From a virus, in the IMG/VR virus record IMGVR_UViG_3300046453_000063, positions 1 to 64,000 of that record: a stretch of 64,000 bases of DNA, one strand, 5' to 3'. A program made the translations under genes and the position numbers. Of this stretch, positions 323 through 51,011 are shown one piece after another. The notes under the pieces are model-generated. The model was given only the letters and a program-made list of their open reading frames with translations, had not been told where the DNA came from and searched no databases. The stretch's first letter is position 1. Each line of letters starts with the position of its first letter.

Positions 323-3300
323 ATGCGTAAGTGTTGTCATTGTAAGGTCAATGGAGTTGATGAATCAAAACAAACATTTGTTTATCGCTGTAATATGGGA
401 AACAAGTGGGATGCTTGTATTAGACCTGTTTGTGATCAGTGTATGGCAGCGGGTGAATATGTAGTTGAAGACGAGACAACGAGATTATATTTATCTGGCA
501 AGACAGCTCATAAAGAGTCTTCGGCAAAGAGTTGGTGGGAATAACAATCATATAAAAGGTCTAATTTATGAAGAAAAATGGAGGATGAGAAATGCTAATA
601 GATATCGACTTTAAACAATCATTAATTGATGAGTGCAACGTCAGGCTTAAAGAACGCTGTACGGATGACGAGTATCAAAAATATTCAGTTAAAGGAGCAG
701 AGTCTTTTTGTTATCGAATTGATACGGGGATTTACTATACCGGACTTAATTTCAATCATGACATTGAATTATTTTCCGAAACAGAAATAAGCGATAGATG
801 GGATAGTTTTTCTATAGTTAGAAAGAAAGGTGATGGAACTATTGATTGGGATTATTTCAATAAGTGTGCGGAAGCAGGAATAGAAAGTAAAGGTAATTAT
901 GGTGTGTGTGATAATTACGAACAAGTATTTAAACATTATCCTGAACTTCATTCAATAGACCGAAAATTTGTTTTGGGTCTCGCTAAAATAGATAAAAATA
1001 CTCAACCAAAAAGAGATGGTTGGAGATGGGAAAAGTGGGGAGAATACATTGGAACACAAAAGTCTCGGGCTGACTATTTGTATGATGAACCTGAAATTGA
1101 TGTTGTATTCGTTTATCATATTTATGAAATCTGATAAATGGCACGTTTTATCAAAATATTAGGAGGGATATTATGCTTACTACATATCGAGAATTAAAGG
1201 AAGATGAGCGCTGCTACGCACAGCAAAAGTATGGTCATTACTGCAATTATGCAAGATCACTTGGATATGAGCCGATTACATGCACCGCTTTTAAAGGAGT
1301 ACGAAAGCACTACAAAGGAATTAAAGAAATGACATACACTATTCACGGAGGGTTTAAAAATGAAAATAATTAATGTTGACAATTTTGACAGGGATTCGGT
1401 AAGTGACAAATTGGTTTGTGAAAATGTAAGTGAGTACTACGGAGAGATTATTGTCGATTTCTTGAATGACCGACTCTCTAGTGAGCATAGTACGGATTTT
1501 TATAAATTGGTTGATGACGACCATAAATTATATGTGTGGGAACCATAAAAAGGAGATAATATATGAACTTAGCTGAAATCCAAAGATTCATGAAAATTGT
1601 ACAAAACCATTCGCCCAATGTATTTATTAATTCGAATTTTGAATTGATTGTTGAGCCTAAGAATAACATTTATTTTCTTCTGGAAGATGTGAAAACAGAT
1701 TTAGACATTAAGCGAAAAGTACTATCCTGGCTTTCCAGGCCTAGTTGTAAGGGCGTAAGTGAGTATTGGCAGAAGCGAATTAGAGCGATTACTAATGAGT
1801 ATCTAGGAACAGAATTTACCGTAGATGATATGCATGAGATTTATACATACTTGGGGAATGACTGCAACAGGGCAAAGTGCTTGAAGTTTATTGAAACAGG
1901 ATATGACATGGGAGTATTGAAGGAGGAGAGAGATGCCCTACATTAAAAAACGAGATCTCGAACAACTTTTAAAAGCTTATTATATGGCTGGTTGCGTAAC
2001 AGGCTATGGGTTTGATCATGAATTAAGTATAAACGAACAAGAAGAGCAAGCTTTTGATGAGTATCATAAAAGTCAACAAAATATAGAATGAAATGCGTGT
2101 TTTATCAAAACTCAAGGGAGATGATAGTTAACATGAAACAGATCGAGATTAAAATTCCTAAATATGAAAATGTAAAAGTTGGTGATATTGTTCAAATTAA
2201 ATGGGAGACGAGTGATGGAAAACAGTTCGACAACAAGTTAGAAGCGGACACTCATGAATTCTATTATTGTAAAGTTAATCAGCGGGGTCATAATCTGCCT
2301 GTCATGAGAGTGGAGATTTTTGATTTTTCATCTATAGAAGATATCGAAAGATATGAATACGATTATGTTGATCGTGATTATGTTAAGAAATACGATAAGA
2401 CAAAAATGATTTTTCCGAATACATATGTTATGTACCATGAATATGATCCTGATTTTGAGTACCATGATCTTGATGAATATGGATACGGCCAACCAGATAC
2501 TCATGTCTACTTTGTTACGCTAGAAGAGTACAAGAAATTGCTACTTGATGCAATTAATGATTTGAAATGAGGTGAGGCAAAAATAATGTATAAATCACAA
2601 AAAAGTTTGCTGCATACAGAAAACAGAATGACTCTAGTCAAATTTATAGAAGGTATACGCTGCCGTGAATGTTCTCATACTGTAGGTGAAAATCCATACG
2701 AATATGATGGGTTTATCTATTGCGAAGATTGTGGAACGTATTTCAATGAAGAAGAGGAGATACAAAGAATGGCGGAGATTGAAAAGTTAGAAAGACGTTT
2801 GGAAGAATTAAAAAGAACAGGAGTGGTTGAATGAGTTTTGAAACAGGTACATATTTGAAGTCACACTATAAAATTCAATATCATAAAAGATCGGCTTTTG
2901 GAGAATACGAGTCTAAATATATGGACTGGAACAATTATGACGAAGTTATTACTAGATTAAAAACTCTTCAAAACAATCCCAAAATAGAGAAAATCGTTAT
3001 CTTAAAAAGAAGTATATACGATGTGACCGAAGAATTTATTAAAGAGGAGAAATAATGTATGGAAATAATTATGAGTATTAAAGAAAACGGAAAATCTCAT
3101 ATACACATTTATAAAGATGGAAACGGAACGCTTAGTCCTTGGGGTGATTCTAAATTTAATTATAAGAAGCGGAATATGTTTATTAGTGAATATGGGGTCA
3201 GTGGTGAATCAAATGAGCGAAAATTTGCAATCTCTATTAGAGTAGACGGTAGAGACAGTAATGAAGGAGAATACAAGCTTACGCAGATGAACTTTAATGA

Positions 3301-4268
3301 AGATGAGCTACGCAACTTAAGAGACAGCATTGACATTTTACTTAAAGGAGAAACCGAATGACGGATATAGAGCAGTATATTAAGGAGTTAGAAGATGCAG
3401 GAATCATTGATCAAAATGGAGCGCCCATAAAATGCCGTGACTGTGGAACATCTGATTTTGATGAATCCAGCTGGGGAGACATTTACTTAGAAGAAACGAA
3501 AGTGACTTGCAAACACTGTAAGAAAATTGTTGGTCATAGATCATATGGCACATGGCAGATTGTTTAGAGTTCATAAGAGTAATTAAGGTTATTGTTACTA
3601 TATGTCTATTACTAGGACTGATTGAATTTTTACTTTGGGAGGATTATTAAAATGGAAAGATGTAAAATTTGTGGAGGAGATGTTCCACTTGCTCGGAATT
3701 TACTTGTTAGAGTAGATGATAAGTGGGTTACAGGGCATGAAGAATGTGTGTCTCTTTTAATTAAAAGTATTGAAATTAAAGAAAATAAAGATAATGACTC
3801 TACAAAGAAAGTCATTGACGTATTGACTAAAGCATTAGAGCCAACAATAGTTCCGTTTGATTATGAAGATATTGATAATTTTATATTAAAAGGAAACAAA
3901 ATTGAAAACACAATGATTGTAACTTCGTTTCCCGAAATGGATAATTGCCACTATGTCATGACTAAATATGGAGCAATTTCTGTTAGTTACTCGATGTATC
4001 TACCAGAAAAAATGATGATCTTAGTTAATAAAGTAAATTGGAAAGGGTAATCTAAATGTGGCCTTTTAAAAATAAACCAAAACCTGTAAAAGATGTTGTT
4101 AACCAAGGATACATATGTGCAAGAATAGATCCTATTAACACGGTCAATGATTTATCGGTTGGAGAATGGAATCAAAGAGAACTACAGAAATCATTTAATT
4201 CTGGATTGATTAGATACTGTATGCAAAGCGAAGTTGATCAAGCAATAGTGAATGGGAGAGTGAAATAG
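323..4268 (+). other. Cluster of about 14 small hypothetical early phage genes, several with CxxC Zn-finger motifs
   Basis: Tightly packed + strand ORFs of 60-180 aa, most with GGAG(G) RBS (323, 592, 1173, 1360, 1563, 2088/2133, 2586, 2831, 3059, 3358, 3622/3652, 4056). Confidence 0.8.
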
Positions 4269-4512
4269 TGAATAGTGAGAAAATTGACCACTTCATATCA
4301 TTGCTGCAAAAGTGGAAAAATGATGATTTAAATTGGGGTGAGTGTTGCGAACTAAGAGAATTTGGATATCAATACAGTGATGCTATAGATGAATACTGGA
4401 AAGCGTGGGTAAGTGAATAAAAACTTAAATGAAAATTAAACTCCCAGTTATAAATCTACTTCTATTCTGAATAAGATAGAATAGATCTTTTAACTAAAGG
4501 AGGACATACATA

Positions 4513-5208: not shown

Positions 5209-5250
5209 TCTTGATGAAATGAACATTTTACAAGAAAGGAAGAAAAGAAA

Positions 5251-7050
5251 ATGCGGAAATGCAATGTCAATGATAAAGTGCAAGTCAAATTAACAAAAAG
5301 AGGACTTAAAGTACTCGATGACCTCTACGAGACTTGCGGTTATATAAAATATTCAGAGCATACAAGCGATACATATAAGTTTGAGTTGTGGGAATTAATG
5401 AATGTATTCGGAGAAAGTTTATTCAATGGAAGTGAGCCATGCTTTGAAAGTAATGAGATAGTCTTTATTTAAGTAAATATAAATATATGGAGGAGTTTAT
5501 AATGAAAAAATATAGAGTTGATACACATTCGTGGAGTGGTGAGGAAGTTAATGATTTGAATATTGCTTTAGGACAATATGAATTGACAAAGGATAGAGAA
5601 ATGGGAGATGGCGTGACTGAGGATTCTTATGTTGAATTAGTTTATAGCGAAGATGACTTCGAGGATTACGAGGTATTAAAAAGAGCTGAAGTTGTCATTG
5701 ATGAGGAAAAAATGAATATCTCAACCCCGAGACAAGAAGGTTACGATTGGGATTATTGGGCTAAATGGAATGAGTTTGATCAAATTAATGAATCAATCAC
5801 CCGATGAAATTGGGCTTTTAAGAAGAAAAGAAGGGAGTAAAGTATAGTGGCAAAAGTAATTGAAACAAATATCTCTTTTGATGATAATGATCAAATCTGG
5901 GATTTTCAATCAAGAGTGATTGAAATTGATAACTGGGAATCATACGTGAGTGAAGTCAAAAATACAGAAACAGTGGTCAGAAATTCGGTTATTGGTGAGA
6001 TGATTGGAAATTCTGTTCCGCGACAATCAAAAGTCGAAAACTTTAAACATGATGATTATCATTTGAGCTGCGATATTTACAATTGTTTTAATGATAAAAC
6101 TAAAAAGTTTGCCTATCTTGCAGAGGAGTAAAAATAATGAAGAAGATAAGTCAATCGATGAAACAATCCAAAGACAACGTATATAACTTTCCACCCAAAA
6201 CAGATTTTGAATTCCGTATACATATGAAGACTAATTCCCAAGGTAATAAAATTATCACCTGCTTTGAATTGCCAAACGGTGAGCAACATGTGCGCAATTA
6301 TGGTGATATTCCAAGCCACAATTTATTGATTCCATTTGAAGGCCAAGAGTTTGAGTATTATCTTGATAATGAATACCAGGGAAAATACAAATTACTTACT
6401 GCAACTCGTGACGCATTTACGTATGATAAAACAGAATAGACACATAAACATCACGATCAATTCAGACCGTCTAATTATAGGCGGTTATTTTGAGTAAATA
6501 AATATAAAGTGCTTGCATTTAATTAATAAATATATTAAAATAATAAGTGAGAAGAAGATACGATTGATGGTAAGCAGCAGGAAAATACATATGGTTTGTG
6601 GAATATTATAATGGTGGAGGAGATGCTTTTGAAATCAAAAAAGTATTCCAGTTTTGATGAAGCCATTCAGGATTTAAAGAAGTCAGGTGAACTGAAGTTC
6701 TTTGGTCGTGAAGGAGTAATGGCTGATGGATATGTATATCAATATTGGAGCAATGGTGTAATGCAAGTGATCGTTGTGTATACAGACGGGAAGCTGGTTG
6801 TAGTTGGATGAATGTAGGTAAAACAATAATTTTGTGTGAGGTGCGGCAAGAGATGAGAGTTCGATTTAATGATAAAATATATTTTTGTACTAAGGCAACA
6901 CATAGAGAGGGTAGTAGTTTGATATTATTTACAAATTCCAATGGAGTTTACTCCGTAGACATTGGCGATGGTGTTAAGGCGGATGAATTATATTTTCAAG
7001 CTTTAACATTAGGATATTGCGATGTATCAAACTACGAGTATTGTAATTAG
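5251..7050 (+). other. Small hypothetical genes (5251, 5487, 5847, 6137, 6596, 6745/6808)
   Basis: ORF track plus RBS; no recognisable motifs. Confidence 0.75.
6464..6541 (+). promoter_or_regulatory. Terminator followed by a SigA promoter with TAAATAAATATA repeats
   Basis: accgtcta-atta-taggcggt plus T-run; TTGCAT(6513-6518)-17 bp-TAAAAT(6536-6541). Confidence 0.6.
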
Positions 7051-7098
7051 ACGAAACAATTCTTTCATTTAAAAAATATAGAAAGGTGAATTTAATTA

Positions 7099-7710
7099 AT
7101 GAAAATATGCAAGTTATGTAATGAAGAGAAAGAGTTAACTGAATTTTATTCTCAAAACAATTATTCCAGAAAAAAAGGGAAATACATTTATTATCATCCC
7201 GAATGTAAGAAATGTACAATTGCGAAGTCATCAAAATGGATTAAAGAAAACCCAGATAGACATTTAGTTTCACAGCTTAAAAGTATGAAAAAGCCAGAAA
7301 ATAGAGAGCGAAGAAAGATTGCTGGACAGAAGTATAGAGACGATGGCTATCTTAATGATTGGTATTATAAAAATAATGAGAAAATAAAAATTTACGCAAA
7401 CAATGGTAAAACAAAAATACATACGATAACAGACGAAGAGTTATTTGAATGCAAAGATTTTTTTGACTGGGCCTGTGCTTATTGCGGAATGAGCGAAGAA
7501 GACCATCGAACAAAGCACAAGAAAAAATTACACCGCGAACACTTTATTGATGATGGACCAAACGATATAACGAACTGTGTTCCTGCATGTGTAAGCTGTA
7601 ATAGCAGCAAAGGAGAAAGAGACTTTTATGAGTGGTACACTGAACACCAAGAGATATATAATGAGGATAGAATTATAAGAATCGAGGAGTGGCTTAGTAA
7701 ATTTAAATGA
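7099..7710 (+). CDS. HNH homing endonuclease with N-terminal Zn finger
   Basis: CKLC...CKKC N-terminus; CAYCG...HREH...NCVPACVSCNSSKG. Confidence 0.85.
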   Translation: MKICKLCNEEKELTEFYSQNNYSRKKGKYIYYHPECKKCTIAKSSKWIKENPDRHLVSQLKSMKKPENRERRKIAGQKYRDDGYLNDWYYKNNEKIKIYANNGKTKIHTITDEELFECKDFFDWACAYCGMSEEDHRTKHKKKLHREHFIDDGPNDITNCVPACVSCNSSKGERDFYEWYTEHQEIYNEDRIIRIEEWLSKFK

Positions 7711-7961
7711 AATTAGCCTTTCGTGGGGAGATGATAAGATGTCATTGCGTGATTATAATGGTCGAGTGATTGGTATGGGAGTAACTGCAAAACCAATTAT
7801 GGGTCATTGGGCAAACAAAGAAGGATTAGTTATAGAGATTGATGACAAGGTGGGTAACATTACTCTAGAGTTTGAGGATAAAGAAATTGGTGTGTATTTT
7901 AATGACAGAATCATTGTTTGTTAAAACCAGATAAAAACAATCTTTCATAAGGAAATGGGGT

Positions 7962-8693: not shown

Positions 8694-8717
8694 AGTAAGT
8701 ACGTCTTTAAATCAAAA

Positions 8718-9619: not shown

Positions 9620-9623
9620 GACC

Positions 9624-10067: not shown

Positions 10068-11214
10068 ATTTGCATTCAAACTTAAAAGGAGAGATTGAGA
10101 TGAAACTAACGATTAGACAGGTTTATGCGACTGTTAATGCCAAGGGAGAGTTTCTTAACTCATACTTAAATGAGGGTAAAGCCAGAGATGTTCTAGCATA
10201 TGAAATTGATCCTAGAGCGGTAGATATAGTTGAAGGATTCTGTGTATTTGATGCTGAAACAAATGTTATTCCCGATGAGGCAAATAGTTTTCATTTCACA
10301 ATTGAGGAAGCTTTGGAAGAGATGAGGTTTTTGAATTCTGATTCATTTAATTTTGATGAGGACGATGAATTATGAAAAAAGATAAATTAGTTGAAGTTAT
10401 CAAAGAGGACCTTTATTTCCTTAATGGTAATTTTGAGGAGTATATTCAATTCCTGTCCGATGAGCTACAAGAGCTACTTCCTCATGTTACCAAAGAAGGA
10501 CTACTTAATCTCAAGAAGACTATAGATGAGGTTAAATCGGGATTATGAAAGTGGCATTTCATTAACTGGGTTTGAGTTTACTATACTATTTAGGGGTACG
10601 ATTTTATGAATAAGCATTCAGCGTGGGAAAGACTGTATCTGGCTGTTGAATCACTAGCAAGTGGAGAGGGCGTTATTTTGTCCCGTTTAGAGAATGTCTA
10701 CATGTCTCACATTCTGGCCTTGAATGAAAATGAATTTCAAGATGAAAGGGCAAAGACATTATTCAAGACAATAATTAAGCCCATTGAAGATGAAAAAATG
10801 AGAAAGGGGCAAATCTTCGATCTTTCAAATGAAGAAGCCAGACAAGTCTCAAAGAACATTGTATCTTTATTTGTTTATTTAAGTGAATCTCAAGACTAAT
10901 TAAAGATATTGCAAATATTCCACAAAAAAGGCGATATAAATTTGGAATATGAGGGTAACAAACACAATTCAAAATTGAGAATGGAGATGTTAGAGATGAT
11001 AAAGAATTATAGTAGCTTTGATAAAAGTTTATTAAGACAGATGAGAGAGTGCGGATTTACTGTAGTTGAGACAGATTTAGATGAGCCGAATAAAAGGAAT
11101 GTTATAGTAAACGGGAGATACAAGTTTAACCTAACTACTTCATGGTTTACTGACCTGGAGACTGGAGAAAAAGATCGGAGCCTTAGTAACTTAAAAAGCA
11201 AACTGGACTGTTAA
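10064..11214 (+). other. Small hypothetical genes (10064/10100, 10372, 10606, 10909)
   Basis: ORF track and RBS. Confidence 0.65.
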
Positions 11215-11271
11215 TGTAAACAGAGTCAAGATGAAACATACATTTCATCTGATTATATTGGAGGGGAAAAT

Positions 11272-11856
11272 ATGAGTTTCGTGTCAATTGTAGCAAGGGA
11301 GAATTTTTTAAATGTAATGAGTGATGGGAGGGTTACCGGGTCAGACCATAAGATTATTGATGAAGAATACCAAAAGTATATGTGTGATAATAATTCATTT
11401 ATAGCTTATGCAGGAACACTTGAGGCATGTGAAATGGTTGTTCGTGACATTAATGAGTTAGTGTTCATTGACAAAGACTATTCCGGTGCAATCAATGTTT
11501 TACTTGAAGTTTTCAAACAAGTTAAGTTGGAAGAAAAGGGCATGAAAGTTATGATGGCATTAGGAGGTCTAAATAAAAATGGGGAGATTGGATTTTATAC
11601 AGTAGATTCGATTAAAAAAGAATCACAGGCATATATACCAAAAGATGATGATATTGCTTACTCATTCCTAAATAACACAGATCATGATGATACTGATTTA
11701 AAATCAAAATTCCGTGAAATTTTAAAAGAAACTGGATTTGACACTCCATCAAAGTCAATACAGGCACAAAGGTTAATGAATAATTTTGTGGCAGATAGAG
11801 ATATATCTGTAAACAAGAAAACTTTTAGAGCAGTCATAAAGACAACTTCTTTATAA
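11272..11856 (+). CDS. Hypothetical protein, possible Ntn-hydrolase/proteasome-beta-like fold
   Basis: MS start, MSDGRV and IAYAG motifs at spacing typical of Ntn-fold proteins (pattern recognition only). Confidence 0.4.
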   Translation: MSFVSIVARENFLNVMSDGRVTGSDHKIIDEEYQKYMCDNNSFIAYAGTLEACEMVVRDINELVFIDKDYSGAINVLLEVFKQVKLEEKGMKVMMALGGLNKNGEIGFYTVDSIKKESQAYIPKDDDIAYSFLNNTDHDDTDLKSKFREILKETGFDTPSKSIQAQRLMNNFVADRDISVNKKTFRAVIKTTSL

Positions 11857-11894
11857 ATTCTTTCTTTCATTAATTTCGGGGAGGGTGTTAATTT

Positions 11895-12498: not shown

Positions 12499-15400
12499 TT
12501 GAGTCAAATGAAGTATTATGGTGGTGTAAATTATTCCAATTTGAATGGAGAGATTTCAATCATGAAAGACAACCTAATTCAATTGACTACATACAATCAA
12601 TTTGGTGAGTTTAGTTTCTATGTTGATCCTAAGCAGATTAGAGCCTACCTGGATAGTATTTTGTCTGAAGTTGAGGTAGAACAGTTTCTCGAAGAATGTA
12701 CATTTAAGGATACTAGAATGTTGTTTGATTGGATTAAGAGTGAATCCTTAAAGAAGGTAGAGTAAGGGGAAGGGGGGGGAGACCATGGAATCAAAGGTTC
12801 CAACTATTGAGGAGTACAAGGAAGCCCTTAATTGGATAGTTGATCAATTTGAAAAAGTACTAGCAGGAGAAAAGGCAGGGAATGTAGTCGAGAGCCTGTC
12901 ATATGCCAAGTCATTGTTAAAATCTTGATAAATGTTTACTTTTAAAGACAAAGGAGATATAAAAATGCAGCTTTATCAATTTTGGTGGCGCGAAGCATGG
13001 GAAGAAGAAACAGGAGAGCCTTTGGCTCATGAAAAGGTATTCTCCAGGGAAGAATTAGCAGGATTTATAAAAGAATCGAATTATATGTCAAGCATCGAAA
13101 AACTTGAGAATTTCTTAATTGAAGAAAAAGGTTTTTACAAGCCCAATTGCATCAGAGTGGATGCAGATGATCCACTAAAAGCTTGATAAAAGCTTGATTT
13201 GATCAGAAAGTTGGTGACTGGTTGAAGTGTGAACATAAGCATATTGCAGTTGTTTTTGCAGCAGGCAAAGAATTGGATAGTGGAGGAATTGAAAAGGATC
13301 TTGTGGTTGATTGCTCAGATTGCCATGAAGAGTTGTTTAGAATGTCCGTTTATCATAAGCAAATATTTAATCTTTTGCCAGATTGAATAAATGAAATTTA
13401 AATCCACAAGAAAGGGAAGTGAAAAAATGGCGTTTGTGATAGTGATCCGAGATGTTGGAAACCCACATGCAGATTTTTACGCTGGTGGAACATATCAATG
13501 TGAACGAGAAATCTATCCAGTGACAGCATTAGGTGATACGGACGCTAAAATATACCGTACTCGTAGAATGGCAGAAAGAGCGGCTGACGGACTTGATAAG
13601 AGAACACGTTTTATCTATACGGTAGTTGAGCTGCCTGAATAATGAGGGAGGAGGTTTAGAAAATCCTTATAAACACTGGGTTTTTTGATCACCAAAGTGC
13701 ATGAAAGCCCGATTTCATAAGGGTGAATAATACATTAAAAGGATAATATTTAATGATTAAAACTGATTTTGCATATACTGATTAATTTGAGCAAGAAAGT
13801 CGCACCACAAAAACTTGTACTGAAGCAGTTTTGGAAGAAGGGGTACACTTGATTTTTTAATTGATGAATTCAAATGTTTTTTGTTGGCAGCAGGATTTAT
13901 AAAAAGAACAGGTTGAGAAGATTGGATATATAGAGTAATAAGCACATGAAAGTTCTGTTTTATGAAAAGTAAATATAAGGAGGTATAAATGTGATCAAAG
14001 AAATATACAATTTCAGCCCCGAAGTCTTCCAAGCAAAATTGGGGAATAAAAAGGAGTTGTTATCAAAACTATTTCATGAATACCGCTTCAATAGGTTGTC
14101 TGAAACCAAAGAAGAAATTGAAAATATATTATTCCAAATATGGGATGAAATGGCGACAGAGAATCTACATGAGATTTTCAACAATTTTGCGGACGTAAAA
14201 GATATTAACCTCACTTTATTAAGAAAGGAGAGAATAAATGATACTAAGTAAATACATAGAGAACCAATTGGCAGAACTAATTGAGCCAATGCACAGAGAC
14301 AGCATGTATTGTATGCATCTTGACGGTGGATTTGCTAAAGACGAAGCATATGAACTTGGATTTGGCGTTGTGGAAAATGAATTTTAGAAAGGAGTAAACA
14401 TGAAGAATCAAAGAATCTTAGACAAAGAAGAACTTGATGAATTGTCGGAAATGTGGAAATCGGTATCTGACTTTATGCCACATAGAAATCATACGTGGGC
14501 ATTAGTTTACAGGTTGACAAGTAATGGAGAATATGAGGTGGTTGAGTTTTATATTGATTTTGAAAAAACACTAGAAAATGAAGATCCTGAGTATTTGACA
14601 CCCGAAAGAAAACATGGTGTTTTTGCAACGGAAGAATTTGCTCAATTCTATATCAACTCTGTTTACATGATACAGAGTATCGTTGCTCCAGACACAGTAA
14701 TTGAATAACCGAATGAATCCCTCATTTTACAAAGAAACTTAGGAAGGAGAGCGTATGAAAATAGATGGATATGCAATTTTAGTAGTAAACGAAAATGGAA
14801 CAAAATCGTATGTGGTTGACCATAATAGTCACGATAACAGACTCCAGCATTGCCTTCAATGGGGAGATATGAACCTAGAGGAAGAACTTCTTCCTGATGG
14901 ATTAAATGACTGCTTGGTTATGGTGTTTTTCAATTACACTTCGGTTCGATCAAGTTGTTGGGAATATGATGAGTATGAAGATATTCTAACAATCCAGCAG
15001 CATGTAGTAATGCAAGAGAGCTACAAGGAGTTTTGGAGAGAACAAATATCTTTCACGATTACATATGATGGACACAGAGAGTGCCCAAGAGAGTTTGAAG
15101 ATAAAGACAAAGAAGTGGAAAATTGGGTGGATGAGTTAATAGAAGAATGGGAAGAACTTTATGATGAAGAATTTATACTTCATAAGAAATATGAACATAA
15201 AAATAAGCACGCTCGAACAAATAGTTGGTTATTTGATTCAAAAACCCTTGACTTATAAGGCTTTTTTAGACCACATTTCCTCATGAAAGAGGTATTTTAT
15301 CAAAATATGAAAAGGAGATGTTGTTGTGAGTAAAGTTGTGATCACACAGGAGCAAAAAGAGGTCCTGCTTTATATTTTAAATATTTATAGCAGCGAAGAT

Positions 15401-19674: not shown

Positions 19675-19713
19675 GATAAATTACAGGTTTTATTAAAAGA
19701 GAGGACGATTAAA

Positions 19714-22595: not shown

Positions 22596-22645
22596 TACAT
22601 ATGATTTGATAAAAGTTGGATTTCGTAAAGAAAAGGAGACCATAA

Positions 22646-31400: not shown

Positions 31401-31805
31401 AGCGTGGGATTTTGCCAAAGGTGATTACCGAGAGTTTGCTATGAAGGACATTATTGAGTTTTTGTAGTTGTTTACATACCATATGTAGCGTTAATAATAT
31501 ATAAGATGTCTATATATAGTATGCAAAACCTCATGAAATGTAACTTTTATGAAGAAGAAGGAGGCAATCAAATGAAGATCGAAGAATATATTCTTGAAGC
31601 AATTGAGCAGCATGAACAAAAAGAAGATGAGTTAAATTTGCATCAATTATGTGAAGACGTTAGAAATAAATTTAATACAAAATGTACACATGAGTATGTC
31701 GGAGGGTATGATAGTCCTGGTTATGATATTGATTGCTATGCGATTGCCTTCATTGATGAGAATGGAGAAATAGGAATCTCCTCATATGAGAAGGAAAGTT
31801 GCTAA
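28497..31805 (+). other. Cluster of small hypothetical genes
   Basis: ORFs at 28497, 29004, 29297, 29554, 29875, 30346, 30580, 31079, 31571. Confidence 0.75.
31270..31467 (+). CDS. Stand-alone WYL-domain protein
   Basis: F.Y.NYKGE.S.R...P..I.YG.....EQWLLKAWD......REF....I pattern. Confidence 0.7.
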   Translation: MDFNKKLMFEYKNYKGEISLRHTFPESIRYGSTEWHPEEQWLLKAWDFAKGDYREFAMKDIIEFL

Positions 31806-37069: not shown

Positions 37070-37081
37070 GACTACACAATA

Positions 37082-37591
37082 ATGAATATTGCAGATTATA
37101 AACGTTTTGATGTAATCAATGGCCCTGGGATGAGACATTCCATCTTCGTTTCGGGGTGTTCACATCATTCCTGTGAAGGATGCTTTAACGCTGTTTCGTG
37201 GAATTTCAACTATGGGGAAATATATGATCAAGATTTTGAAGACTCCGTAATCAAAGATTTAAATATAGATTATGTAAAACTTTCCGGTGTCTCGATTCTT
37301 GGAGGTGAGCCTTTTGATAATGCAGAAGGATTGCTACCTTTGGTTCATCGCATAAAAAACGAATGCATTCATAATAATATATGGATTTGGTCTGGGTATA
37401 TATTTGAAGAGATATGTGAAGATGACATGATGAAAAAATTGTTAACATACTGTGATGTGCTAGTTGATGGAAGATTCATCATAGAGCAACGGGATTTGAA
37501 GCTCAAGTGGAAAGGATCACGAAACCAGAGGATTTTAAATGTGCAAGAAAGCTTAAGATGTGGGAAGGCAATTCTTCTGCCTTTAACATAA
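37082..37591 (+). CDS. nrdG: NrdD activating radical-SAM protein
   Basis: [38 protein letters not shown]. Confidence 0.95.
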
Positions 37592-37620
37592 ATAAATATA
37601 CATACAAAGGAGATGTTGGC

Positions 37621-40083
37621 TTGACACAAGTATTTATAACAGAGGATTTTGCAAAGGAAATTGAACAGAAATATCCGCAACCACTAACAGAGCTTGGGGA
37701 GTTTGTGTATTATCGCACATATTCTCGTTGGTTATCTGATAATGACAGACGAGAGAAATGGATTGAGACATGTCGAAGAACAGTAAATTACAATATGGGA
37801 TTGGCTGTAGATCACTATAAAAACATTGGACTCAAACCAAATCTTAAAGAAATGAAAAAAGAAGCTAAGAAATTCTTTGAAAATATGTACCTTACTAAGC
37901 AATTTCCTTCCGGGAGAACAATGTGGGTTGGTGGAGCAAATCAGGCATTAAATGAAAAATTTGTTCTTGGGAACTTTAATTGTTCATTCTTGAATATTAG
38001 TAAATGGGATGATCTTGGTGACTTATTCTACCTGCTTATGGTTGGTACTGGAGTTGGATTTAAATGCACTAAGAAAATGGCGAAAAGTTTGGCTCCGATT
38101 CGGATTAACACAACTCTTTTGCATTCCGAATATAAGCCAGTTCCCGTTTTACAACGACTAGAAAAAACAAAAGTTACATTCTTTGATAATGGGTTTGCTA
38201 AGATTTATGTTGGTGACTCCAAAGAAGGATGGGTAGATGCTCTTAGACAATATTTTAACATTCTTACGAGTACAGAATACGAAGAAATTCACACAGTAAA
38301 AGTTAGTTATAACTCAGTTAGACCAAAAGGAGAACGACTTAAAACTTTTGGCGGTACAGCATCCGGTTATGAACCTCTCAAGGAAATGTTTGATGGAATT
38401 AATAACACGCTGAAAAACACCATTGATAAAAATCTTGCTCCAATTGAGATTATCAAAGAAGGATACTATAGTAAAAATAATAATAACAAAAAACATGCAC
38501 CGATTTATGGTCAAGTTCGTCCGATTCATATTCTCGACATTGGTAACCTTATTGGCGCAAATGTGGTAATCGGAGGAGTTAGAAGAACCGCTGAAATATT
38601 CCTGTTTGATCATGATGATTATGAATCCATGTTTGCAAAATTTGGAATGAATGGTATTTGGGGAGACGAGGGATTTGCTAAACTTGAAAAAGTCAAAAAC
38701 AAGCTGATCGAAAACAATATCCCCATTCCATCATTTTTCGAAGAGCTTTCTATTAAACATTATTATGTGTATGATTCTGAAAACAAAGTGAAGATTGGAG
38801 ACTTCACTTCTGCGGATGAAGCAAGTGGTTTTGCTAAAGAAATTGGTCACGAGAACTACTTCCCTTTCCCTTGCAATGAAACTAGGGCATTACACCATAG
38901 ACGAATGAGCAACAATTCAATTGGATTTACGTCTAAACCAACACGCCCATTCCTTAACTTTGTATATGAGATGATGCAAATGGAAGGCGAACCTGGATTT
39001 GTAAATCTTGAAGAAGCAGCTCGTCGCGTACTAAAACAATTGCGCGTATTAAATCCAACCAGAGAACACTTAGAGTATATTATGGCTTTAATTGGACTAA
39101 ATCCTTGTGTCGAAATCATACTTTTTACTTACAATGTCTGCAATCTCACTACGGTCAATGTAAGAGCTTTTGTATCGGAAGTCGGTGGTAAGTATGTACT
39201 TGATACTGAAGGGCTGTTGGAAGCGCAACGACTGTCTGCTCGCGTTGGTCTTCGTATGACTCTTGCAAAACTAGAGCTTGAGCATTGGGACGCAACGCAA
39301 AAGCGTGACAGATTGCTTGGCACATCCTTGACGGCCTGGAAGGACGCAACTGCGCTACTTGATTACACGTCAGAACAGGAAGAAGAGCTTATGGAGTTGT
39401 TGGGCAACGCTTCAAGAGACGAAGCAGACTTATATGCCAAAGAAATGCGTGTAAATGCACCGCTACTTGTTACTGCTGTTAAGCCAGAAGGAACATTGTC
39501 TCAAGTGGCAGGAGGAGTTTCTAGTGGTTTACATTGGTCTCATTCTCCTTATTATATTAGACGAATTCGCATTAACTCGGCAGATCCATTGGCTCAAGTA
39601 GCCTTGAAATTGGGATGGAATATCAATCCTGAAGTTGGTACTGCTGGAGATACATATGAAGAGAAAATGAAGAATGCACGAACATGGGTTATTGATTTCC
39701 CGATTGAGTCTGGAGCAAAAGAAACAAAAGAGGACGTATCTGCCAAGAGACAACTTGAGACATATTTTAGCTTTCAGAATAAATATACTGAACATAACTC
39801 AAGCAATACAATTACGGTCAGACCAGAAGAATGGGCGGAAGTAGAAGAAATTATCTTTAACAATTGGGATAATTTCGTAGGGGTATCCTTCCTTCAATTA
39901 AACGGAGGAACATACCAGCTCGCCCCTTATGAAGCAATCACAAAGGAACAATTTGTAGAAATGAAATCAAAAATGAAGCCATTTGATGTAAATGTTCTTT
40001 ACGATGTTGAAAAGACAGAAACCGAAGCAGATGAGGAAAATCTAGGCAACTGTGAAGTTGGTGGCGCATGTCCAATTAGATAA
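37621..40083 (+). CDS. nrdJ: Class II (B12-dependent) ribonucleotide reductase
   Basis: YYRTYSR, PSGR, NCSF, GGVRR, NPCVE, VKPEGT, C-terminal [10 protein letters not shown]; TTG 37621 follows aaggag. Confidence 0.9.
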
Positions 40084-41473: not shown

Positions 41474-41540
41474 CCTATAGATATATCTGGCGGTGGTTAA
41501 TCCATCGCCTTTTAACTTACAAATTAAGGGAGGAAATAAA

Positions 41541-42907: not shown

Positions 42908-42939
42908 ATATATACAAATTAATTAAACTATGTTATGAT
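42896..42939 (+). promoter_or_regulatory. SigA promoter with TTTAATAAATAAATATA repeat
   Basis: TATACA(42911-42916)-17 bp-TG.TATGAT(42934-42939). Confidence 0.7.
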
Positions 42940-42996
42940 GAGTACAGGTTAAGAAACACGCCTGTACTTTATTTTATTTCTAGGGAGACGATACAT

Positions 42997-43269: not shown

Positions 43270-45884
43270 TTAAATATTTTCGGAGACTGAAGACCAAAGT
43301 TATTATTCGTATCTTTTGGATGAACATTTTTGATTCTGTAAGAAATAATCATCGTGATATGGTTTATGAAATTGCATACGAAATGGGCAGAGCTAAACAG
43401 CGTAATGATGTTGAACCTTTGGAGGGAACTTATGAAGATTAGTCAAAATGTAAGGTATAAATATATGGAGATTTGTCCTAATAGTACAATGAAATGCGAT
43501 ACATATGAAGAAATTGATTACAAAATTAAACGAGCTGTTGATTTGGGCAGAGTTGTTTATACATATCCTTGCAGAGTTATTCAGTATTATAATTTGAGGT
43601 TAACAGTTGAAATCGGTGATAAAGAAAACACCGTTATTGATATGGAAAAGAATGACGACTTTTATCGAGTAGATGAAGATCGGAAATTTGCACACGAATG
43701 CAAGCATTATAATATGGCTATTTGTGATTTTGATTATCAAGATAATAAAGCGTCAAAAGAAGAGATTATGAATATTCTAGGGAAAAAATTCTTTTAATAA
43801 AAAGGAGATAAAAATGACACCAGAACGGGTTAAACATTTCAAAAGACTTCATATCCAAAAGCATCAAGATTGTGATGCATACCTTACCGTTGGGGATTTC
43901 AATTCTTTATTAGCTGATCTAGAAGAGGCGCAACAACAAATTAAAGATCAGGACGAACTACAGGAAACCACGCTAGGACTCCTTATGGAAGCACAGGAAG
44001 ATTATGAAGAGACGAGAAAACAATTGGCAGAGGCACAACAACGGGCAGAGATTGCTTATCTGGCATACGAAGGATTACAGAATGATTGTGTAAGTCGTGG
44101 GGAGTACGAGTCAATGCTTAACAAAAATACGGTGCTGGCTAAGGCGATTCGAGAGGCAAAACAGACAATATCAAACCAACAAAGCAAGATTGACGCAGCA
44201 TTGTCCTGGACGTGGAACTGTGGTGAGGCAAATATGCTTGAGGTTATCGCAGCGTTGAATGGCAAAGAACAAACCGTACTCACATTCCCAAACTGTCCTG
44301 TATGCAATAGTAATAACACGCTGTCTCACCCAACTAAAACAGGAACGTGGTTGTGCGTTCCATGCAACAAAGTCTTTGAGGAAGGAGAGACCACGTGACA
44401 TTTGAAAACGTAAAGCACAACATCCCAGAGATAATGCGCAGACACCCATTCCAAAAACAACAAAGCGAACATTTTGATTTAGAGGATATTCTGGATGATT
44501 ATGAACTATGTAAGAAAATTTGCTATTTGTACGACATTGGAATAACAATTAAAATGATAAAATCTGTCTACTCTGATATTGAAAACGAGAGAAGCGAAGA
44601 TAATCGAACAGATAATGACTCGATTGAAAACCGAGATTACTATTAATTTAATTCTGGGGTTTAAAAAAATGGCTAAAAATCAACGTTATTTTAAGCTAAA
44701 AACTTCATGAAAGGCGAGTTTTATCAAAACATGGAAATGGGAGTGAAAATATGGCTATTGTTGCAGTATTATTGATTCAAATCTCTTTGTTGATTATTAG
44801 TATTATTGGTTACTTGGGTAAACTCAAAAAATATAAATATGAAAGAATTATTCCATTTATGATAATTTTATTAAGTCTTGTTTTGACATTTATAATGTTC
44901 AAATGGCTTTAATTAATTGACAATTAAATATGAAAGGAGACTTACTAAATGCTACTCAGCATAATTTTCGGATGGTTAGCTCCATGTTATCTATACATAG
45001 GAATGTTCACGCTGCTAATTGGAATGATCATCGATGGTATTTCAGAATTTGGGTGGAAGCAAACAGCACAATTTATTCTTGCTTGGCCTGTGATTTGGTT
45101 CGTGGTTGTATTGCTTAAACATGATATGTATAAAAATAAGATGGGAAGCAAGAAATGACAACTAAAGTATGCAAAAGACACCAACTTGAACCAGCATTTA
45201 TTTATGGTCAATGCATTGGATGTGAAATTGAGTATTACCAGAAAAAATTAAATGAGAAGGATGAAGAGCTTGAGATGTTAAATAAAGAAATGAAGGAGAT
45301 AAGAGAGAAATATGAAACCGTTGAAAGAAAATGATCTTCCGATTGAGGATATCGACCTTCATGAGATCAGAATGAATGAGGTTATTTTGAAAAGAAGTAA
45401 CGATGATTTGATAAGTATGCTGTCATATATGAGTGGATATGCCGGGAATAGTGAATTTTTTGATGAGGCTTTTCAGTCGGCATTAGTTTATATAGGAGAT
45501 GAGAATTAAATGACAAAAGAAAAAATCCTAAAGATGAACGACTCTGAACTCGATTATTCAATTGCAACAGAATTCTTGAAATGGTATATAACAAAAGGTG
45601 AGTTTAGCGGTAATGAATACTGGAACGATGAGGATGATTATTCTCCATACTCTGTAAATAATTTCTCTCCTTCTAAAAATATTGAGACTGCGTGGACGAC
45701 TGTTGTAGATAAACTAAGTAAGCAAGGAATGAGAATTGTTCTAGAGGACTATATGAATGGAGAGTGGCTGTGCTCTTTGAAGAATATATACGGAGGATAT
45801 ATCATTGGTGTACATAAATTTGATTCGGCAACAAGAGCAATATGCAAAATTGCTTTAATGACATTAATTGATGAATTCTCATGA
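43266..45884 (+). other. Cluster of small hypothetical genes
   Basis: ORFs at 43266, 43354/43432, 43814, 44395, 44752, 44949, 45312, 45510. Confidence 0.7.
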
Positions 45885-45948
45885 AAACTATGTTTTACTT
45901 AGAAAAATTATTCAAAATTGATTTAATAAATAAATATATACATAATTA

Positions 45949-46623: not shown

Positions 46624-46834
46624 GGGGAATATTCATAAACAAATTCACAATCACAGCAGCAATAACGCTTTGGTTAATCATCATATACATATGCTCAATT
46701 TTAAATGATTCGCCCAAAAGTAAAGGATTGCTATGCATAACATTGGCGTTCATATTTATGACTATAGACTCATACATAAAGTTACACAAGAAATGACAGC
46801 ATGAGAAGTAATTAACTCTTAGGAGGAATTACGC

Positions 46835-49800
46835 TTGATAATAAAAATAATAAATGCAAAAGATGGTCATTGGTACAAAGATGCAGTAGGATTTAATTTT
46901 GATGCTGAACTAAAAGTTAATCCTAAATTCCAAACAAGATACTATCAACTGCTAAACACAGAAAGGAATCAATCTTACTTTGTAGATGATGAGTTTGAAT
47001 TATTGTTTTTATTGTCTGGATGTAAGGGTGTCGAATATTGGGATGCTATGAGAACATGGGAGGAGGAATAAAGATGGAGCAAGAATGTACTAATGGATGT
47101 GGAAAATTGGAAAGTGTGCGTGGTCATATTGAGACAAATGACGGACGTACATATTTTAAAGTGGATATTTTATATTGTCCAGATTGCCTATGTATAGAAT
47201 ATGTTGATGCAAATTTATAGGACGATCAAAGGCTGCTTTTATCAAAAATTATGAGGAGAGATAAAATGATTGGATATCTAAATAGTAAATCGGAGAAGCA
47301 AATTGAGACGATGCTGAACAATTTTGAGAAACTAAATAAACACTATCTTCAAGAAGTTACCATTGTTAACGAATTTGCAGGTCATTGCTTTGACATTGGA
47401 CAAAAGGTACTACTCGTAGACATTATTGATGCTGAAATTCCACTATATAAGGCAGTTGATTTAGAACATAAGCAAAAATGTGTAATCCAAGAAGATGAGT
47501 TTGAAGTTGGATTTAACACAACTTTTAAGGAGGTTGAACCATGGAACTAACCAATAGTCAAAAAACAACGGTGTTTCAAACTATCGAAGACAAACTTTTT
47601 ACACTGCAATATAAAATTTGGGACTATGAAAAACTTGAACAAACTAAAGAAATGGTTTTTCATATCAATAATCTTAAGAAAGACCAAACAGAGCTTCGTG
47701 AAGTAAGAGATATGCTACAAAGAGAGATTGAACTTAGCACAAAATAAATATTAGGAGGGAATTATAAATATATGACAATGATCTATAAAGTTGAACAAAT
47801 TGATTATATGGGTTATCCAGCCTACGAAAAATATTTTAGTGGCAAGAATAATGCCGAACAGGACTTTGAAGATCGACTACTACATATTAAGAAAACAGAA
47901 AACATTGTTGACCCAGAAGAACATTATAAAGAGAACGAAATTTTACTAGGAGAAAACAATAAAATTAAGACTGAAACTGTTTGGTATTGGGAAAGAACGA
48001 GTTATGAATATGAAGAATATGATAGGTATCCCATTGAACTAAACATTAGAGAGATTGAATTGAATTAAATAAAGGGAGTTGAGTAAATGACAATATATAA
48101 AGGCGATTACTATTGTGAAAAGTGCCGACCAGAGCATTATGTTACTTTGTCCTATGAAACACCTACGTGTCCCTGCTGTGGATCGAAAATGACTGAATTT
48201 TTCACGGACGATTAAAAATGATCATCTAAAAAACCGCTAAAACATTGGGTTTTTTAGATGACAAAACTTTATAAAATGAGACTTTCATTAAAATAAAAGG
48301 AGATAAGATATGGATAATGATAAATTAACAACAGAACATGAATTGTTTATTTCGATTGGATTAAAAGTTCCTATTAAACCTTCTGTATTTAGTAAAGAGA
48401 TTGACTCAATGATATTTGAAAATATTGGATACGTACAAAGCTGGGGAGTACACACTAAACACGAATACATAGAGTTGTGTAGTTCATTACAAGATAGACT
48501 GAATAAAGTAACAGACGCTCTAACTTGGATTAGAAAGAATTATGAAGAAGATTGGACATATGAAGAGGGCATAGGTGAGGCCGTATCTGGTATCATTCTA
48601 TCACTGGAAAATGCCTTAGATATTACCTAATGAAAACTGAAATTTATCAAGAAAAAAGGGAGGTAGTCTCAATGGAAGTTGGTTATACATTAAAGGGAAA
48701 ATGGTTGGGAGAAGACTGGCGAAGCAATATCTTCACCGATGCAGAGGATTGTAGTTCTCTTTATTGGAAACTTATTAATGACCGAGATTATGAATCTCTC
48801 AAAGAACATATTGTGTATATGCATTTTTAAGAAATTAAGTATGACTAAATTCAGATAAAACTTTACTTTTATGAATAAATATACGAGGGAGAATAAATAT
48901 GAAAAATTATGAAGAATATGAAAAATACTTTAAAAATGGAGAGCTAGACATTCTAAGTAAATACACCTCGATTTACAAAAAGACTAAAAATAGGAGAATT
49001 AAAAAGAAAAATTTCAAGAAACTTAAAAAAGACCTCTTCTTACTTATGGATAAAATTTTAACAATAAAAATTCAGGAACAGTTTGATTATTTCGTCAAGG
49101 TTGAAGATTCAATTAAATTTAACAAATAAGGAGATGATTTAGAATGAAAATATTCTTATTAATTGAACTCGATATTCTTTGCGAATCAACTAGGGTACAT
49201 AGCGCATATTTTAATATCAAAGACGCAGAAACAAAGAAGATAGGACTAGAAGAACTATGCGAAGCAAAAGAAGCTACGTACATTGATTATATGCATTCAG
49301 ACGATGAAGAAGATTCTCCAGATTCAGACTTTGATTATGTTTACTTAATTCAAGAAATTGAAGTTCATTAGTGGTGGTTTAAAATAAACTCAATTTTATG
49401 AAGAAGAGGTGAATTGTATTGGAACGATTCTTTTTAAAAACAAATGAAATTACAAAAGAAACATATTTATTAGAAGTAGATGGAGATTTTTATGGTCATG
49501 ACATGCAGAACATGGTAATTGCTAAATTTTATAATCAAGATTATGCAAAAAGAGTATGCTTTTTATTAAATGAGGATTTGTGAGTTGTTAATAAAATATA
49601 GTGAGAGGTGATTTTATGATTGAATTGAACAAGTCTCAAATCCTAGAAATTGTCATGGATCAATTAACGATTCTACACAATCAAACACCATCAAGCATTA
49701 AGGTGAATATTGATTGGCTAAAATTTCGATATGATAAATATAATTCTGAATGGCACTTTATTGTAAAAGATATTGATGAAGGCATTCTAAAATATGCCGT

Positions 49801-50986
49801 GCGTGATTACTATGGTTATCCATCGGTACGATATGTCACATATCAAAAACTTGGTGACTGTATTGCTAGAACGTTTCCTGAAATGGTTAGAGTTGAGTTT
49901 GATTTTAAAGTTAAGGATGATATTACATTGAAAACCACAATGGGCAATGCAGAAGTTATGGAGTTAATTGATATTGTGGCTAGAGTGTATCATGATGACA
50001 AGGCAGAAATTAAGCAGGATGAACTACGTGATCTGATTGATTTGTCATTAGTGATGGGTGATAAAGTATGGTTCGAGGAATTGACAGATACATATAAAAA
50101 CATTAATAAATAAATATACGTAATTAAACGATACAATGAAAATCATAAATTTTATTAAGAAAATGGTGACTATATGAAAGTATTTTATTCTGACGACCAT
50201 GATGGACATTATCCTGTGGGTGTGTGCTCAATCATTATTGCAGAGAACGAAGTAGTTGCAAGAAATAAACTTAAGAATAAACTTATTGAACACGGTTTAA
50301 GTGCAGAAATAAGCTTTAATTTACATGAAATAAACACAGAAAAATCAGAAGCATACATAATTTTAGATGGTGATTATTAAGTAAATTACAATCAATCGAA
50401 ATCCAGATTTTATTAATAAAATAAAAAGGAATGATACTAATGTTTCAGTTAGAAGATATTAAAATTTATCACATAATGCACAATCAGTTTCAGGATGCTG
50501 TTGATCAAATTATTCAATTCTATAATGAAATTAATGATAGAGATGATGAGATCGAGAATATTAGGTCAGCCCATGACGGATTTTCAGTTGAAGTTTATCA
50601 ATGGGTGGGCGGAGGATATCAGGATAGTAACACGATAAATATCAGTTTTGATTTGCTCACGAACGAAGAATTATTTAACCATCTTGCACAACAAGCAGAT
50701 GACGCTAGAACAAAAAGAGAAAGGCTCAAAGAGGAAAGAGAGTATGAAAAGAAAAACAAACAAATCGAAGAAGCGATGAAGTTTCTTAAGGATAACGGAA
50801 AACTATGATAAATCGTTAGTTTTATCATGAAAAGGAGTGTTGATAAATGTGTCATTGTAAATATTGTGATGAATCAGAAGAAGAGAACGGATTTTGGGGA
50901 GATGTTTATTTCTATGTGGAAGAGAATAAATGCGATAAAGAAACAGCTATGAAAGCCATAGAAACGATATACGAGGAATTTTGTAA
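46835..50986 (+). other. Cluster of small hypothetical genes delimited by dyad sites
   Basis: ORF track plus RBS. Confidence 0.75.
49601..50113 (+). CDS. IDEAL-domain protein
   Basis: C-terminal LIDLSLVMGDKVWFEELT. Confidence 0.6.
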   Translation: MRGDFMIELNKSQILEIVMDQLTILHNQTPSSIKVNIDWLKFRYDKYNSEWHFIVKDIDEGILKYAVRDYYGYPSVRYVTYQKLGDCIARTFPEMVRVEFDFKVKDDITLKTTMGNAEVMELIDIVARVYHDDKAEIKQDELRDLIDLSLVMGDKVWFEELTDTYKNINK

Positions 50987-51011
50987 AAGAACCATTTCAT
51001 GAGGAATAATA

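Follow-up and report, generated by a model that had tools for sequence, protein, structure and literature searches.

Junction dyads with position-specific centres as candidate addressed crossover sites for cassette exchange in SPbeta-like phages

Integron cassettes move and reorder by way of attC sites. These are imperfect palindromes of 57-141 bp in which R''-L''/L'-R' boxes and extrahelical bases are found; they fold as single strands and in that form recombine with attI, which lies beside intI and a Pc promoter at the head of the array. Heterospecific lox and FRT sites are kept from cross-reacting by their different spacers. The linkers of modular theory (Susskind and Botstein), and the lambdoid boundary sequences, were either postulated or amount to a few loosely conserved stretches. 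Here, a family of short dyads, ATRAAW-N6-TTTYAT, is described from IMG/VR virus record IMGVR_UViG_3300046453_000063 (hereafter G000), which is 163,994 bp long with terminal repeats and whose first 64 kb form the stretch analysed (the window). The dyads stand at gene junctions, each with a 6-bp centre of its own, and comparison with related phages suggests that they frame slots of exchangeable, mutually unrelated genes.

Among described phenomena, the nearest is the modular shuffling that T4-type phages undergo through PeSL (promoter-early stem-loop) cassettes (Arbiol et al. 2010, PMC2839356; PMC4122927). Both PeSLs and dyads are short intergenic repeats in hyperplastic early regions rich in small ORFans, and in both cases the motif is where related phages part when one has gained, lost or replaced a gene. 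A PeSL is a sigma-70 promoter plus terminator unit whose copies are alike, recombine within a genome and yield mini-circles (PMC2839356; PMC4122927), whereas the dyads have neither promoter nor stable hairpin, and their centres are unique to a junction and conserved in map order. SPBRE, a 15-bp promoter-embedded motif of SPbeta bound by MrpR (Kohm et al. 2023, PMC10516654), is, like the dyads, a repeated intergenic element of SPbeta-like phages, and its binder has a tyrosine-recombinase fold and a homologue in G000. As read from the SPbeta yorE, yorZ and yosX promoters, SPBRE takes the form TAGACAAA...AATATGTATATAAT at about 10 promoters; it resembles a promoter family of G000 that carries TTTAATAAATAAATATA, and not the dyads.

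In geometry the dyads are like the core sites loxP, FRT and dif, with inverted arms about an asymmetric spacer of 6 bp (6-8 bp in those systems), and, as in heterospecific lox/FRT cassette exchange, partner sites share the spacer across genomes, on comparative evidence, and two sites flank a cassette. They differ in having an arm core of 6 bp, or about 10 bp with weak positions, against 11-13 bp, and in numbering about 70 natural sites per genome. We know of no natural system of heterospecific exchange sites, literature searches included, and the dyads are not mentioned in the SPbeta literature searched. With integrons they have in common promoterless single-gene cassettes that are expressed from upstream promoters and end in an inverted-repeat site, in many cases overlapping the stop codon; unlike attC they are simple and 18-26 bp long, and unlike in integrons their positions are fixed, their spacer order is collinear between genomes and there is no attI/intI platform, the PF00589 genes (114515 and 86433) not lying at the head of an array. 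Linkers and dyads are alike in being short conserved sequences between interchangeable modules with exchange in register, but the dyads are palindromic and densely spaced, and they combine an arm of protein-binding type, common to the family, with a centre that is specific to the position.

G000 is, as judged from its encoded proteins, an SPbeta-like (Bacillus-type) phage, because homologues of YorL, YonO, MrpR/YopR, YopP and YomM are present: a DnaE-type polymerase, encoded in two parts, has about 50% identity with SPbeta YorL, a YonO-type RNA polymerase shares 55% identity with SPbeta YonO, the MrpR/YopR homologue has both MrpR Pfam domains, and both a YopP-like and a YomM-like protein of tyrosine-recombinase fold are encoded. 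Genes on the plus strand at 1-62 kb and 114.5-164 kb are small early/accessory genes and genes of replication and nucleotide metabolism, while the late genes occupy 62-114 kb on the minus strand. No GenBank phage was matched by megablast when 8 kb of the window served as the query. Relatives were reached through RecJ, namely G001 (174.5 kb, RecJ 91% identical in amino acids) and G002 (a 138 kb provirus, RecJ 66%), and a third, G007 (158 kb), through one dyad spacer. A scan of the collection with the spacer TGCGTG returned 50 loci, most of which look unrelated by dyad density and flanking context, and only loci in YonO-bearing contigs were taken further.

The consensus ATRAAW-N6-TTTYAT gives 42 strand matches in the window, corresponding to 25 sites, where dinucleotide shuffles average 1.16 and never exceed 5, and 33 forward plus 31 reverse matches in the whole of G000 against 5 plus 4 for a reversed-reading control. 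Dyads were called with a core position weight matrix (PWM) at a cut-off of at least 11 bits, which finds 68 sites genome-wide compared with 8.9 in local shuffles; 42 of the 68 lie inside the window and about 37 of these are intergenic. The junction dyads that a sequence-only reading of the window had proposed are confirmed. Of the copies listed in that reading, those at 12928, 24575 and 50396 score below 11 bits, and its statement that none lies beyond 51 kb is contradicted by a strong copy (16.9 bits) at 52606. The few sites within coding sequence (19784, 41018, 44839, 50635 and probably 23704) may be chance matches.

Most dyads lie between a stop codon and the following ribosome-binding site (RBS) in early and accessory regions, with mostly 14-30 nt from the end of the dyad to the next start codon, and late operons hold few. 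The upstream stop is supplied or abutted by the left arm in 18 copies genome-wide (gap -4 or -1), as had been read from the window, and consecutive copies do bracket single genes, for example 552-1134 with the open reading frame (ORF) 592-1134, 7051-7707 with ORF 7099-7710 and 23228-23441 with ORF 23262-23441. Where a gap also contains a promoter, the dyad remains beside the upstream stop and not the RBS; most dyads are within transcription units and do not overlap sigma-A-type promoters. The PWM derived from the 289 sites of four genomes is symmetric, and the proposed 18-bp repeat holds as a core from which symmetry extends weakly outward to about 26 bp (YTTN-ATRAAA-N6-TTTYAT-NAAR). The four central bases are unconstrained, the spacer is invariably 6 bp long and none of 290 sites has a palindromic spacer, where 4.5 would be expected.

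Two other repeats accompany the dyads. An element of about 35 nt (A-tract, CC, TAAACATTG, T-tract) precedes five of them at a fixed distance and contains no clear promoter and no stable terminator. In the second family, TTTAATAAATAAATATA stands ahead of a TTGACA or TATACA hexamer of -35 type and of TGnTATAAT; these are sigma-A-type promoters, with about 40 further copies in G000 oriented with the genes on both strands, and they probably drive the cassette arrays.

The centres of the dyads distinguish them from an ordinary repeat. G001, G002 and G007 each carry 71-80 dyads (5-9 in shuffles), and no spacer is repeated within any genome, which for G000 bears out the earlier observation that all spacers differ. 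Between genomes, by contrast with a chance expectation of about 1.3 per pair, exact spacer matches number 37 for G000-G001, 12 for G000-G002, 15-16 for G001-G002, 21-22 for G002-G007 and 13 for G001-G007. These matches are collinear in 37/37, 12/12, 15/15, 21/21 and 12/13 cases respectively, the collinearity test using the lower counts of 15 (G001-G002, with G002 oriented) and 21 (G002-G007). Control hexamers taken at other offsets from the dyad gave chance-like numbers of matches, with longest collinear chains of about half of the matches.

Most flanks of the shared dyads are unrelated between genomes. Some 22 junctions of G000 and G001 have the same or almost the same 18-mer, but nucleotide identity is random beyond its edges and the flanking ORFs have no significant blastp match on either side (E >= 0.005); at all 12 shared-spacer junctions of G000 and G002 blastp found no match for the ORF on either side, and the arms are toggled around an identical spacer. 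Of 61 slots that two genomes delimit with the same pair of spacers, 38 had less than 10% tblastx cover, and several carry three different unrelated inserts, such as that from AGATTA to GGATTC, which measures 201, 698 and 441 nt in three genomes. At the junction after the primase gene, 4-5 of the 6 spacer bases are kept between primases that are just 27-29% identical. Both flanks are homologous between G000 and G001 at 2/48 dyad gaps compared with 50/157 other gaps. Spacers are better conserved than the degenerate arm positions, and changes may be somewhat commoner in the arm beside a replaced flank than in the one beside a kept flank (about 7 to 3 in a count by eye). On the strength of these alignments the dyads appear as the boundaries of slots that related phages have filled with different, unrelated genes, one in place of the other. 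The earlier proposal that genes are inserted and shuffled through the dyads is retained for replacement within slots and not for movement, cassettes at new positions not having been seen; the translocated gene at 2830-3036 has no dyad at its boundary in G000, where the nearest are at 2088 and 5214. The dyads of the window, to which no strand is assigned, and the two accompanying repeats are as follows (bits are the core PWM score).

552-569: junction dyad, spacer GGTCTA, 13.5 bits; spacer collinear in G002, flanks unrelated
1134-1151: junction dyad, spacer GGCACG, 13.8 bits; spacer common to G001 and G002, flanks unrelated
2088-2105: junction dyad, spacer TGCGTG, 16.9 bits; 18-mer identical in G001, spacer in G002; flanking ORFs without blastp match; spacer also a slot boundary in G007
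5214-5231: junction dyad, spacer TGAACA, 13.6 bits; intergenic, start codon 20 nt on
5804-5821: junction dyad, spacer TTGGGC, 12.4 bits; spacer in G001, flanks unrelated; slot boundary in G007
7051-7068: junction dyad, spacer CAATTC, 14.6 bits; spacer in G002, flanks unrelated
7707-7724: junction dyad, spacer TTAGCC, 14.5 bits; spacer in G002, flanks unrelated
7931-7948: junction dyad, spacer ACAATC, 17.0 bits; G001 homology block begins at 7932
10545-10562: junction dyad, spacer GTGGCA, 17.6 bits; spacer in G001 beside an uncompensated G to A change of the left arm; flanks unrelated
11231-11248: junction dyad, spacer CATACA, 17.6 bits; intergenic
11853-11870: junction dyad, spacer TCTTTC, 14.6 bits; spacer in G001 and G002, flanks unrelated
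13186-13203: junction dyad, spacer GCTTGA, 13.5 bits; adjoins upstream stop codon
13701-13718: junction dyad, spacer GCCCGA, 17.6 bits; spacer in G001; A-tract/TAAACA/T-tract element upstream
13946-13963: junction dyad, spacer GTTCTG, 16.9 bits; 18-mer identical in G001, flanks unrelated
14713-14730: junction dyad, spacer CCCTCA, 11.2 bits; spacer in G001
15283-15300: junction dyad, spacer GAGGTA, 16.9 bits; 18-mer identical in G001, flanking ORFs unrelated
19676-19693: junction dyad after the primase gene, spacer TACAGG, 13.8 bits; 5/6 spacer bases kept in G001, primases 29% identical
21417-21434: junction dyad, spacer TAAAGA, promoters downstream, 13.0 bits; within a block homologous to G001
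22609-22626: junction dyad, spacer GTTGGA, 13.9 bits; spacer in G002, flanks unrelated
23228-23245: junction dyad, spacer TTTGTG, 16.3 bits; 18-mer identical in G001, flanks unrelated
23441-23458: junction dyad, spacer TTAGAA, 14.6 bits; adjoins stop codon
24820-24837: junction dyad, spacer ACATAC, 13.8 bits; spacer in G001 and G002, flanks unrelated
26318-26335: junction dyad, spacer CTTATC, 16.3 bits; within a block homologous to G001
28972-28989: junction dyad, spacer GAGAGA, 17.6 bits; G001 homology block ends at 28989, G001 spacer different
29261-29278: junction dyad, spacer GGCGTA, 13.5 bits; spacer in G002, flanks unrelated
30545-30562: junction dyad, spacer GTCAAA, 14.6 bits; spacer in G001 and G002, arms toggled, flanks unrelated
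31533-31550: junction dyad, spacer TGTAAC, 16.9 bits; spacer in G001
34611-34628: junction dyad, spacer ATAATA, 16.3 bits; 18-mer identical in G001, flanks unrelated
44707-44724: junction dyad, spacer GGCGAG, 16.9 bits; 18-mer identical in G001
45881-45898: junction dyad, spacer ACTATG, promoter downstream, 13.6 bits; spacer in G001
47225-47242: junction dyad, spacer GGCTGC, 14.0 bits; in G001 the upstream gene is 91% identical, the downstream gene unrelated
48271-48288: junction dyad, spacer TGAGAC, 17.0 bits; spacer in G001, flanks unrelated
48630-48647: junction dyad, spacer ACTGAA, 14.1 bits; spacer in G001, flanks unrelated
48855-48872: junction dyad, spacer CTTTAC, 16.3 bits; spacer in G001 and G002, flanks unrelated
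50808-50825: junction dyad, spacer CGTTAG, 13.8 bits; adjoins stop codon
50983-51000: junction dyad, spacer GAACCA, promoter downstream, 13.6 bits; identical in G001
52606-52623: dyad within a promoter spacer, spacer GAGGTG, 16.9 bits; 18-mer identical in G001, flanks unrelated
13660-13700, 15240-15282, 23187-23227, 28931-28971 and 48230-48270: A-tract/CC/TAAACATTG/T-tract element upstream of dyads
233, 6497, 6525, 21462, 21502, 28440, 33604, 42903, 45929, 50109, 51019 and 52591: promoters of the TTTAATAAATAAATATA family

SPbeta itself carries a variant of the dyad, ATAAAA-N6-TTTTAW, at stop/RBS junctions, with 36 PWM matches in 130.8 kb (NC_001884.1; examples at 83687, 86073, 86885, 95562, 113663, 115043, 116414, 126702 and 128076). 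The copy at 116414-116431 is annotated in that record as part of a stem-loop. SPbeta and phi3Ts have 18 spacers in common where 0.3 would be expected, 7 of them at a sharp boundary with one flank about 100% identical and the other unrelated, and 5 as isolated islands. A 3.2 kb block of SPbeta (83687-86899, 99.97% identical to phi3Ts) starts at the first base of a dyad and ends within another, and the block 113654-115079 is likewise framed by dyads; overall, 6 of 44 ends of SPbeta/phi3Ts blocks fall within a dyad or 6 nt of it, against 0.45 expected. Spacer sharing between the SPbeta clade and the G000 clade was not above chance.

Sixteen unique junctions of laboratory-evolved SPbeta x phi3Ts recombinants have been tabulated (Dragos et al., bioRxiv 10.1101/2020.05.06.055103, Suppl. 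Table 1). Junction 7, labelled 30 bp, corresponds to the island AAATAAAATGCATATTTTAAA, which contains the dyad ATAAAA-TGCATA-TTTTAA between unrelated flanks. N1, the only non-homologous junction listed (chromosome position 2170033; bioRxiv 10.1101/2020.05.06.055103), maps to SPbeta 116414-116421, within the dyad ATAAAATATTCCTTTTAT, its coordinates being calibrated by junctions 5 and 8 (offsets 2,286,447-2,286,454) with an uncertainty of about 7 nt. Both junctions with no more than 30 bp of homology are therefore at dyads, and other junctions in the table lie in homologies of 1.4-6.9 kb. The idea that the dyads would serve cassette exchange is supported by the comparative data together with these two published junctions.

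On balance the dyads are probably, by a modest degree of belief, a scaffold of addressed crossover sites for cassette exchange. In such a scheme the common arms would be read on double-stranded DNA by a dimeric protein, and the asymmetric 6-bp centre would act as an address, unique within a genome, tied to one map position and kept in order among SPbeta-like phages. When two related phages meet in one cell, crossover would take place between sites of the same centre, the need for matching centres being our inference, and paired crossovers at adjacent addresses would exchange the intervening promoterless gene or genes for unrelated ones. Deletions between sites of one genome would be avoided because all centres within it differ. 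Spacers that do not repeat, are never palindromic and are conserved beyond the degenerate arm positions fit what directional, mutually orthogonal recombination sites would need.

A tyrosine recombinase had been predicted to lie outside the window, and indeed PF00589 genes are found at G000:114515 and 86433 and none within it. The leading candidate for the acting enzyme, put forward tentatively, is the YopP-like tyrosine recombinase at G000:114515-115654; it is possible, though we would not count on it, that a recombinase of this family binds the arms of about 70 heterospecific sites and exchanges strands only between those with the same centre. The YopP-like proteins of G000, G001, G002 and G007 have the full R-K-HxxR-H-Y set, YopP is a core SPbeta-like gene transcribed in SPbeta lysogens, and two YonO-bearing phages without dyad enrichment are also without homologues of YopP, YomM and MrpR. 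Recombination over short homology, at the 18-30 bp islands of identity, would be about as likely as the YopP-like enzyme, and would proceed through RecA or a Sak4-like annealase, perhaps with stimulation by a protein that binds or cuts at the arms. The YomM-like protein (G000:86433-87515) is encoded inside the tail gene block; this tyrosine-recombinase-fold protein has homologues in G001, G002, G005, G007 and SPbeta and is 60-85% conserved across this set. The large serine recombinase of the window was discarded as the acting enzyme, being present in G000 only of the eight genomes compared.

That the dyads are RNA elements of polycistronic early mRNA, small hairpins 5' of the RBS acting in processing, as 5' stabilisers or as translational operators, would agree with the short, constant interval between each dyad and the RBS and start codon that follow it, and with the early-region copies all being on the transcribed strand. 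Among 272 distinct sites, however, the R/Y combinations of the arms are G-C 49, G-T 57, A-C 45 and A-T 89, so that A-C is as frequent as G-C, and inner T-T and A-A pairs occur; the 24-nt dyad segment has a mean minimum free energy of -1.6 kcal/mol (z-score about -1); and orthologous dyads switch R or Y in one arm, uncompensated, while the spacer stays. Neither the position of the dyad beside the upstream stop where a promoter shares the gap, nor the conservation of loops amid unrelated flanks, would be accounted for, and RNA elements are considered very improbable; an intrinsic terminator was dropped, as was an RNA hairpin, on the same covariation and folding data. Because the arms show no RNA-type covariation, and given their symmetry and fixed spacing, the dyads are best taken as a putative double-stranded DNA site for a dimeric protein, as the sequence-only reading had favoured. 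An artefact of AT-rich intergenic DNA with its stop codons (TRA) and Met-Lys starts might be suspected, since the left arm includes TGA or TAA, the common start ATGAAA is the right arm read on the opposite strand, about 8-9 PWM matches per genome are expected and a few copies lie in coding sequence, but it is refuted by the 36-fold excess over dinucleotide shuffles, the 7-fold excess over the reversed pattern and the collinearity of spacer matches between genomes, and its probability is negligible.

A more serious alternative, though in our estimate an unlikely one, is that the dyads are operators of a global early/accessory regulator, either a dimeric repressor or a recombinase-fold binder such as MrpR, and that cassette exchange is, with the same low expectation, a by-product of RecA- or annealase-dependent (Sak4-like YorG) recombination on islands of identity. 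Palindromic arms without RNA covariation, confinement to early and accessory regions with few copies in late operons and the copy at 52606 inside a promoter spacer would all suit an operator, as would the many mosaic breakpoints away from dyads and the lack of the second catalytic Arg in the tyrosine-recombinase homologues of SPbeta and phi3T; the recombinase-fold repressor MrpR of SPbeta does bind a repeated element (PMC10516654), and PeSL is a precedent for recombination at regulatory motifs (PMC2839356). A regulator that reads the arms alone, however, leaves unexplained why spacers are junction-specific, non-palindromic and conserved in order amid differing flanks. Transcription units, moreover, contain most of the dyads, clear of the sigma-A-type promoters, a repeat family of their own; SPBRE, to which MrpR binds, differs from the dyad; and 2 of the 16 unique laboratory junctions fall on islands of 30 bp or less while other junctions of the table are in kilobase homologies. 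No conserved -35/-10 hexamers were found at or near the dyads, and comparison by eye with the sigma-A promoter, the extended -10, the extracytoplasmic-function (ECF)-type -35 and the CodY, Fur, Rex and ComK boxes gave no match. SPBRE was also set aside as an identity for the dyads, the motif derived from SPbeta yorE/yorZ/yosX being embedded in -35/-10 elements, unlike the dyad.

Several observations nevertheless weigh against addressed exchange at the dyads. In SPbeta and phi3Ts, 38 of the 44 block ends are away from dyads, and between G000 and G001 homology transitions occur at similar rates in dyad gaps (14/48) and dyad-free gaps (56/157); the dyads are not the sole breakpoints. Spacer conservation could stem from repeated exchange and not from selection. 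Only 6 bp of each arm are strongly conserved, about 10 bp counting the weak outer positions. Of the laboratory junctions, which derive from short-read contigs, N1 carries the coordinate uncertainty given above, and on the phi3Ts side it is reported to lie 14 nt short of the same dyad, beside a left-arm-like ATAAAA. As to the enzyme, HxxK replaces HxxR in SPbeta YopP and in every YomM homologue, and a canonical tyrosine recombinase is perhaps unneeded because SPbeta (HxxK) and phi3T show the same mosaic pattern.

Two analogies drawn in the sequence-only reading were not borne out. Integron-like sites had been proposed, but the comparison fails on attC structure, on an intI/attI platform and on cassette reordering alike; and the tolerance of spacer heterology known as the Tn916 type does not describe sites whose partners across genomes have the same spacer and one map position each.

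Other features of the window concern the phage itself. The YorL homologue is encoded in two parts within 53365-58444, the first (53365-54846) comprising PHP and the initial 103 positions of the NTPase domain and the second (55856-58444) the remainder, with a 242-amino-acid ORF at 55086-55814 between them. G001 is without this insert, G000 54793->55922 corresponding to G001 5195->5198, which suggests that G000 acquired some 1.1 kb here as an intron or homing-endonuclease element. The large serine recombinase at 60145-61905 has Resolvase, Recombinase and Zn-ribbon domains; tblastn of eight genomes found no close homologue beyond G000, a match in G003 being 22% identical, and the protein may be the phage integrase or part of a separate insertion. 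Neighbouring ribonucleotide reductases at 34880-40083, an anaerobic NrdD (729 amino acids) and a B12-dependent class II-like enzyme (858 amino acids), contrast with SPbeta, which has class Ib NrdEF instead. On the minus strand, at the start of the minus-strand block, 62156-63625 encodes a 489-amino-acid protein with a TOTE-type archaeo-eukaryotic primase domain.

What positions the joints between genes is a long-standing question for mosaic phage genomes. The joints described here appear to bear an ordered code, in which a common palindrome would mark the exchange point and a private 6-base centre the identity of the slot. The same sites are present in SPbeta and phi3T, genetically tractable phages of Bacillus subtilis, which makes the idea directly testable. 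If an enzyme is involved, the dyads would be dozens of naturally occurring recombination sites, each orthogonal to the others. The slots house small accessory genes, anti-defence genes among them in SPbeta-like phages, and the dyads may explain how quickly such genes are traded; if the proposal is true, co-resident phages would swap single accessory genes slot by slot while their genomes stay unscrambled.

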